Positions 321-447 of a stretch of DNA of 22,950 bases are shown one piece after another; position 1 is the stretch's first letter, and each line of letters starts with the position of its first letter. The position numbers and the translations under genes were made by a program. This DNA is from Escherichia coli (GTDB taxonomy: Bacteria; Pseudomonadota; Gammaproteobacteria; Enterobacterales; Enterobacteriaceae): assembly GCF_003334355.1 (NCBI RefSeq), contig NZ_QOWP01000046.1. One strand, given 5' to 3'. The notes beneath the pieces are model-generated. The model saw nothing but the letters and a program-made list of their open reading frames with translations. It ran no database searches and was not told the origin of the DNA.

Positions 321-332
321 TTAAAGGAAAAG

Positions 333-361
333 TTGCTGTCTGATTTTCATTAGTCTAACAT
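333..361 (+). promoter_or_regulatory. Candidate late promoter (PR'-like) just downstream of Q
   Basis: TTGCTG at 333-338, 17-bp spacer, TAACAT at 356-361; position matches the PR' location in lambdoid phages. Sequence match to consensus is weak. Confidence 0.2.
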
Positions 362-420
362 TTTAAATGTTGGAATCGCAACGTAGTTATTATCATATAA
401 CAGCTTGTTTCCTGATTTAG

Positions 421-447
421 CCAGCCTCCCCAAAGGCTGGTTTTTTT
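421..447 (+). terminator. Rho-independent terminator (tR'-like)
   Basis: GC-rich hairpin CCAGCC (421-426) / GGCTGG (435-440) followed by a T7 run at 441-447. Confidence 0.6.

Follow-up and report, generated by a model that had tools for sequence, protein, structure and literature searches.

In classical lambdoid phages the late promoter PR' lies directly after the antiterminator gene Q. The segment at 321-447 of the DNA analyzed here (the window, a stretch of 22,950 nt in all) raises the question of whether the same arrangement holds behind its own Q gene, where a promoter-like site is followed at short distance by a strong hairpin. The first-pass annotation of this DNA read the segment as a PR'/tR' late-transcript leader, with the accessory island downstream transcribed only under Q antitermination or from promoters of its own. 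We examined the Q gene, the terminator and its homologs, the distribution of the PR' promoter family, and the promoter-like site together with the short RNA it would produce. The features of the region are collected in Table 1.

Table 1. Coordinates of features between the insertion sequence end and the first lysis gene
Feature	Position	Strand	Description
IS1203 (IS3-family) end	1-78		Genomes with intact Q align only from base 79; an IS1203 transposase is annotated beside the Q pseudogene in NZ_AP027697
Q remnant	79-320	+	C-terminal 80 codons and stop codon (318-320)
Promoter-like site TTGCTG-17-TAACAT	333-361	+	Sigma-70-like; predicted start near 367-369
Hypothetical ~80-nt RNA	368-447	+	Exists if the promoter-like site fires
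Block homologous to the StxS 3' end/tR'	398-447	+	blastn against Sakai Sp5
Rho-independent terminator	419-447	+	9-bp stem, 6-nt loop, 7 U
Lipocalin (Blc-like) gene	476-1000	-	Convergent with Q; first gene past the 419-447 terminator
ybgA (moron)	1193-2152		Downstream of the lipocalin gene
PR'-family member TTTACA-ATCGTAAAAACTACGC-TATGAT	2200-2237 (hexamers within 2200-2227)	+	Predicted start A2234
AraC-like gene	2550-3272		Between ybgA and holin
Intrinsic terminator ACGCCAGAATAATTGCTGGCGT + TTTTTCTTTTT	3341-3372	+	Between the AraC-like gene and holin, 90 nt ahead of the holin start
Holin (essD)	3463-3678	+	Annotation L001:9463-9678; first lysis gene, where the late genes begin

The window belongs to a Qin-like defective lambdoid prophage of E. 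coli PSS-12 and is identical to NZ_AP027697 from 529,247 onward. Farther along, a cspA thermoregulator match (Rfam, 114 bits) was found at 5297-5681, ahead of the prophage cold-shock gene cspI. The placement of the unit after Q proved correct, with the stop codon of a PF06530 gene immediately upstream, and this Q is a remnant whose first 45 codons were removed by the IS1203 insertion. The Q copy of this prophage is unable to give a functional antiterminator; because it was destroyed by IS1203, it can provide no antitermination, and the terminating state is the only one possible in the window.

The intact allele encodes a protein of 125 aa (L002:5865-6242), and an intact gene of this length is present in most carriers of the unit, including BL21. 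The protein matches the Pfam family PF06530 (the Q21/Q933/QuuD family) over its full length (E = 7.8e-51) and is distantly related to the solved Q21 structure (PDB 6p18, E = 5e-9). Its identity is 95% with the Q of the 2E9 group of phages, 83% with the ev243/QuuD type and 76-79% with Q933 of the Stx phages, and the differences from these relatives are concentrated in the predicted recognition helix. This helix reads SDGYIGKRLQ in ev243/QuuD and SDTCIGKRLH in Q933; the window's Q differs from both, and the helix of the L184-type Q, SDCWVGRLLQ, is one residue off that of the window's Q. With a recognition helix unlike those of Q933 and QuuD, this Q may use a different binding site. The L179-type phages share the helix of the window's Q, and no k-mer of 8 nt or longer is common to their post-Q segment and that of the window.

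A strong intrinsic terminator after Q, originally placed at 421-447, is confirmed at 419-447. It was called by the consensus scan with stem arms at 419-427 and 434-442 and a T7 run at 441-447, and the hairpin folds at -14.2 kcal/mol. Under a stricter rule, which requires six or more T immediately behind a hairpin with dG <= -12 kcal/mol, this is the sole site on both strands of the window, compared with 0.13 +/- 0.43 sites in 30 dinucleotide shuffles. At an identity of at least 90%, the unit is present in 1113 of the 5426 complete E. coli genomes, among them BL21, whose copy of the unit is 99.4% identical, and BLR(DE3). It is also found in the 2E9 group of temperate phages, the records of which were deposited as phage genomes.

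The closest described counterpart of this terminator comes from the Stx phages of strain Sakai (Sy, Lan & Tree 2020, PMC7547250). Mapping in these phages placed the PR' start 258 nt ahead of the 3' end of tR', and RNase E was shown to process the terminated RNA into StxS, an sRNA that binds Hfq and activates rpoS. In Sakai and AP004402, PR' has the form TTTACG-16-TATCAT and overlaps the Q933 stop codon; the Sakai start falls at L129:746, in agreement with the published mapping, and the distance from the StxS cleavage site to the 3' end is 85 nt in the same sequence. The blastn comparison with Sakai Sp5 aligned 398-447 of the window (TAACAGC ... GCCAGCCTCCCCAAAGGCTGG-T7) with the last 54 nt of StxS (L129:950-1003), with 42 identities over the 54 positions (78%, E = 5e-6). 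Upstream of 398, in local and anchored global alignments, the similarity to StxS is no better than that of dinucleotide shuffles, of which 383 in 1000 and 614 in 2000 reach it. Conservation of the whole 74-85-nt StxS body with its 5' end in the window was considered and dropped on account of these shuffle-level alignments. By this comparison only the 3' module is demonstrably common to the unit and StxS, and the last 50 nt of the unit and the tR'/StxS terminator of the Stx phages go back to one module.

The StxS seed UGUAACGAA, which pairs with UUCGUUACA of the rpoS leader, is absent from the unit on direct inspection, and the window has GCAACGUAG instead. The RNAduplex energy between the unit and rpoS was matched by 173 of 500 shuffles, and the positive control was itself weak, being matched by 87 of 500. 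Since the StxS seed is replaced, there is no basis for inferring rpoS activation by the unit. The StxS region itself has no significant match in Rfam, which contains no StxS model.

To describe the modularity of this region we used 120 IMG/VR loci carrying the terminator. The Q type and the type of post-Q segment strictly co-vary among them, and the gap between the Q stop codon and the terminator is 99 nt for the Q found in the window and 250 nt for Q933. The Stx leader, extending from its first hairpin through tR', is attached to no fewer than four distinct Q/PR' modules, one of which has a lambda-type Q and an AACGAT pause element. Because the leader is joined to several Q/PR' modules, the terminator module can be regarded as a reusable block. 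Within the Stx leader, the first hairpin (AACCCGCCGATGCGCGGG followed by T7; L129:770-797, L184:2222-2248, L212:560-590) also resembles an intrinsic terminator; it is located only ~25-50 nt past the PR' start and is the sole post-PR' terminator in DLP12, ev243 and the L184-type phages. In the Stx phages this hairpin must be leaky, because the mapped 3' end lies 258 nt downstream.

A profile of the PR' family was built from nine canonical members, with window-type copies left out. The only significant nhmmer match of this profile in the window falls at 2200-2237 (E = 0.0048); within 321-447 there was none even at E <= 100. The matching element lies just past ybgA; its promoter (2200-2227) agrees with the consensus at 10 of 12 positions, and it is identical to the mapped Sakai PR' at 15 of 16 positions over TTTACnATCGTAAAAA. 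It has the family core, namely TTTAC(G/A)-(A/T)(T/A)CGTAAAAA, a 16-bp spacer, a TATnnT -10 hexamer, and a start A followed by GTG. Further traits of the family are AAGAGTGGTTAC within the first 15 transcribed bases and, after it, a CCCGC...GCGGG hairpin terminator with a U tract. The element at 2200 has neither AAGAGTGGTTAC nor this first hairpin, and the next strong terminator is the one at 3341. The bases after 2234 (AGTGTCAGTTTTT) lack GTGGTTAC, which is invariant in the other family members, and the 2E9 group retains only TACAGT. The site at 2200 may be a qut that has decayed or been retargeted. In the 2E9 phage group its core is kept inside flanks of ~70% identity, and the terminator at 3341-3372 is kept with one loop change.

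Several further observations concern this promoter family. The element at 2200-2237 (also present at L003:7120-7160) constitutes a homolog of the Stx PR' located 1.88 kb downstream of Q, between ybgA and the AraC-like gene. A 9-bp hairpin with CAGTTTTTAT at 2218-2238 overlaps the -10 hexamer and the predicted start of the same promoter, and could end ybgA transcripts where the next promoter begins. The family core over the -35 hexamer forms a short palindrome in each variant (L129:714-723, TACGATCGTA; L212, TACGTACGTA; L026, GCGTACGC), which may be a binding site for Q or for another dimeric protein; the site bound by Q21 is instead organized as a direct repeat.

The PR' family accompanied all of the relatives of this Q that we examined, but its position relative to Q differs between the phages. 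In the Stx phages it directly follows Q933 and its start is mapped by dRNA-seq. In the L184-type phages it is ~600 nt away from Q, on the far side of a lipoprotein gene of the reverse strand. In ev243 it is just ahead of the holin gene, and in DLP12 of strain K-12 it precedes essD by ~150 nt (L212:492-550, nhmmer E = 8e-18), while no PR'-family match follows quuD. Control of the lysis operon of DLP12 by the phage's Q-type antiterminator has been reported (Rueggeberg 2013, as cited in PMC7918800).

We estimate a probability of about 0.6 that the hairpin at 419-447 is a gene-end terminator behind Q, and that the loading promoter of Q is the element at 2200-2237, outside of the 321-447 segment. 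We infer that the terminator most likely stops rightward transcription coming through Q; it would also stop any transcript from the weak 333-361 site, and termination at this point would protect both the lipocalin gene, which is convergent with Q, and the ybgA moron. In this lineage Q would load at the PR'-family element, with transcription beginning near A2234. The likely late leader would then run from PR' at 2200 through the AraC-like gene and end at 3341-3372 unless Q is present, in which case it would continue to the holin gene at 3463; the terminator at 3341-3372 is thus the candidate for Q to override. This arrangement mirrors those of DLP12, ev243 and the L184-type phages, in which Q is followed by hairpins, a reverse-strand moron and, further on, PR'. 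The terminator is a known kind of element, and the presence of a tR'/StxS-type terminator right after Q and upstream of the clade PR' is a variant arrangement and not a new mechanism. Of the PR'/tR' leader originally proposed, the upstream Q and the tR'-homologous terminator stand, whereas the assignment of 333-361 as the PR'/qut of Q is not supported, the only significant match of the family profile being at 2200-2237. The expectation for the accessory island was only half right: blc and ybgA lie upstream of the likely late promoter and would not be read from 333-361 by Q-modified polymerase.

The hexamers of the promoter-like site are placed as the first-pass annotation claimed, TTGCTG at 333-338 (3 of 6 consensus bases) and TAACAT at 356-361 (4 of 6), but the site has only 7 of 12 consensus positions in total and received no call in the consensus promoter scan of the window. 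It is the top position-weight site between the Q stop codon and the terminator (9.43 bits), but by the same score it ranks 42nd over 45.9 kb (both strands of the window), and ~0.09 sites of equal score are expected per 100 nt by chance. As a control, the same position-weight scan placed the dRNA-seq-mapped PR' of Sakai Sp5 on top (10.68 bits) with the correct start; the method works, and the score of 333-361 is not decisive. The -35 hexamer and the TAnnnT pattern of the -10 hexamer are constant across all 14 alleles seen, the 2E9 version of the latter being TAATGT. We dropped this conservation as promoter evidence, given that with 15 variable sites in 127 nt chance produces the same result about half the time. 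The spacer is the most variable part, with 7 differences from 2E9 in 343-372.

A hypervariable spot lies at 346-347 inside the promoter spacer, with the alleles GATTTTCAT, GATTCTCAT, GATTGTCAT and, in 2E9, GGTTATCAT; one position takes all four bases, and the flank at 317-342 is invariant. The stretch at 333-353 is also readable as a 6-codon ORF (TTG CTG TCT GAT TTT CAT TAG) downstream of an AAGGA motif. The palindrome AACATTTTAAATGTT at 357-371 is disrupted in 2E9 (AATGTTTCAAATGTT) and probably arose by chance. An alternative promoter, TTGGAA-15-TATCAT at 370-396 (8.74 bits), was rejected as well: natural variants strike both of its hexamers, and although its spacer (ATCG...) resembles that of the Q933 PR', the PR' profile did not register this similarity.

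The distance from the -10 hexamer to the terminator stem is 57 nt, and the predicted RNA (368-447) is ~80 nt long. Such an RNA would contain a 5' stem-loop, an AU-rich linker, the terminator hairpin and U7, with a minimum free energy of -23.3 kcal/mol (z = -3.6 relative to shuffles). By our own reading of the natural variants, the 5' stem has no compensatory support, two changes being compatible with pairing and three disruptive. Searches of Rfam at gathering and permissive thresholds found no family for the unit, merely sub-threshold terminator-like matches, and a full-text literature search with the sequence of the unit found nothing. Within the would-be transcript there are two -10-like hexamers, TATTAT (388-393) and TATCAT (391-396), at +21 to +29; they are altered to TATGAT/GATCAT in 2E9 and to TATTAC/TACCAT in L024-type alleles. 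The pause elements at which Q is loaded in lambda, 21 and 82 are located at about +1 to +15.

These data bear on three other readings of the segment. Taking 333-361 as PR' itself, with a surrounding Q site and a sigma-dependent pause, and 419-447 as tR', from which Q-modified polymerase would read on to the late genes, seems quite improbable to us. The site directly follows Q and is the best local promoter-like site, yet the clade PR' profile is blank in 321-447, and the L184-type relative, with a recognition helix only one residue off, uses the canonical family at a distance. The -35 and key -10 bases are unchanged in all alleles, whereas the spacer, which by analogy with Q21 would be the place of the Q site, is the most variable stretch; moreover, inspection by eye revealed no Q21-like direct repeat with an 8-bp period between the -35 and -10 hexamers (cf. 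PMC6606751). The would-be transcript does contain -10-like hexamers (388-396), as this reading would have it, but they are located beyond the usual pause positions and vary between alleles. The terminator is homologous to a genuine tR', and 321-397 is unique to this Q type, as expected of a Q-specific qut module; the first gene downstream, however, is on the opposite strand.

A real though minority possibility is that the segment is an autonomous sRNA gene, in which 333-361 drives Q-independent synthesis of an ~80-nt, StxS-like and probably Hfq-binding RNA in lysogens; this would be compatible with the role of the terminator. The 3' module is common with StxS, an Hfq-dependent sRNA (PMC7547250), but the RNA body at 368-397 has no significant similarity to StxS and the rpoS seed UGUAACGAA is changed to GCAACGUAG. 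The succession of stem-loop, AU-rich linker and U7 terminator is typical of such sRNAs, and the predicted length of ~80 nt is comparable to the 85 nt between the StxS cleavage site and 3' end in Sakai Sp5, although compensatory changes are lacking in the 5' stem and neither an Rfam family nor a literature match to the sequence was found. Maintenance of the unit at 90% identity or more in 1113 of 5426 complete genomes speaks for this reading, and the weakness of the promoter, with a chance rate of about one such site per 1.1 kb, speaks against it. The specific version in which 333-447 is an independent sRNA gene, combining the StxS/tR' terminator module with a different seed and relying on the weak promoter at its head for expression in lysogens, is somewhat unlikely. 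Finally, the Q mRNA could end at 447 and be cut by RNase E to free a stable 3' fragment. The segment at 321-447 is the 3' UTR of Q, and StxS is itself released by RNase E from a longer RNA that ends at a terminator (PMC7547250), but no clear RNase E consensus (RN|WUU) was found and Q is silent in a repressed lysogen, which makes such an origin very improbable.

On the preferred reading, in which the terminator closes the Q gene and Q loads at 2200-2237, annotation by position, in which PR' and tR' are assigned to whichever promoter and terminator come first behind Q, does not work for this Q clade. The late promoter of the clade can be hundreds to thousands of bases from Q, behind morons, and because of this distance different accessory genes are predicted to be switched by Q. 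In the window, blc and ybgA precede the likely late promoter, and the AraC-like regulator, if the 2200 element is the late promoter, has PR' on one side and the terminator of PR' on the other and so may be constitutive in lysogens. As a mobile building block, the tR'/StxS terminator module occurs beside different Q types, which provides a lead that non-Stx prophages may make StxS-like RNAs. If the independent sRNA gene were real, StxS would belong to a larger family of regulatory RNAs that are carried by phages, anchored by a terminator and uncoupled from Q antitermination, and the gene would be carried by about one fifth of complete E. coli genomes, including B/BL21.

Three described systems are comparable to this locus. 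The unit and the Stx tR'/StxS region have an identical stem (GCCAGCC/GGCTGG(C)), a TAACAGC box ~15-18 nt upstream and a U tract after it, and both are rightward and downstream of a PF06530 Q (~79% identity). They differ in the distance of the terminator from the Q stop codon (99 nt in the window, 250 nt in the Stx phages), in the loop, and in that the window terminator is not preceded by the clade PR' or by the first hairpin. The StxS body and rpoS seed are not recognizable in the window, and the window terminator is upstream of its PR'-family element, whereas the Stx terminator is downstream.

Lambdoid PR'-qut-tR' cassettes are represented by the 6S RNA unit of lambda and by the PR' of phage 21 with its Q-binding element of two TGAGCA copies (PMC6606751, bioRxiv 10.1101/651190). 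The window resembles them in the succession of Q, a promoter-like site and a terminator inside ~130 nt. It differs in having no Q-binding repeats detectable by eye and no -10-like pause in the first 20 transcribed bases, in the orientation of its next gene, which is on the opposite strand, and in possessing a better cassette candidate at 2200-2237.

In DLP12 and ev243 the order is quuD, post-Q hairpins, a reverse porin gene, PR' with a hairpin terminator, and essD. The window differs from them in the sequence of the post-Q segment and in its PR' element, which is followed by the AraC-like gene and by a terminator only at 3341. It agrees with them in having a same-clade Q (83% identity), a short hairpin-ended segment, a reverse-strand moron, and a PR' element near the lysis genes.
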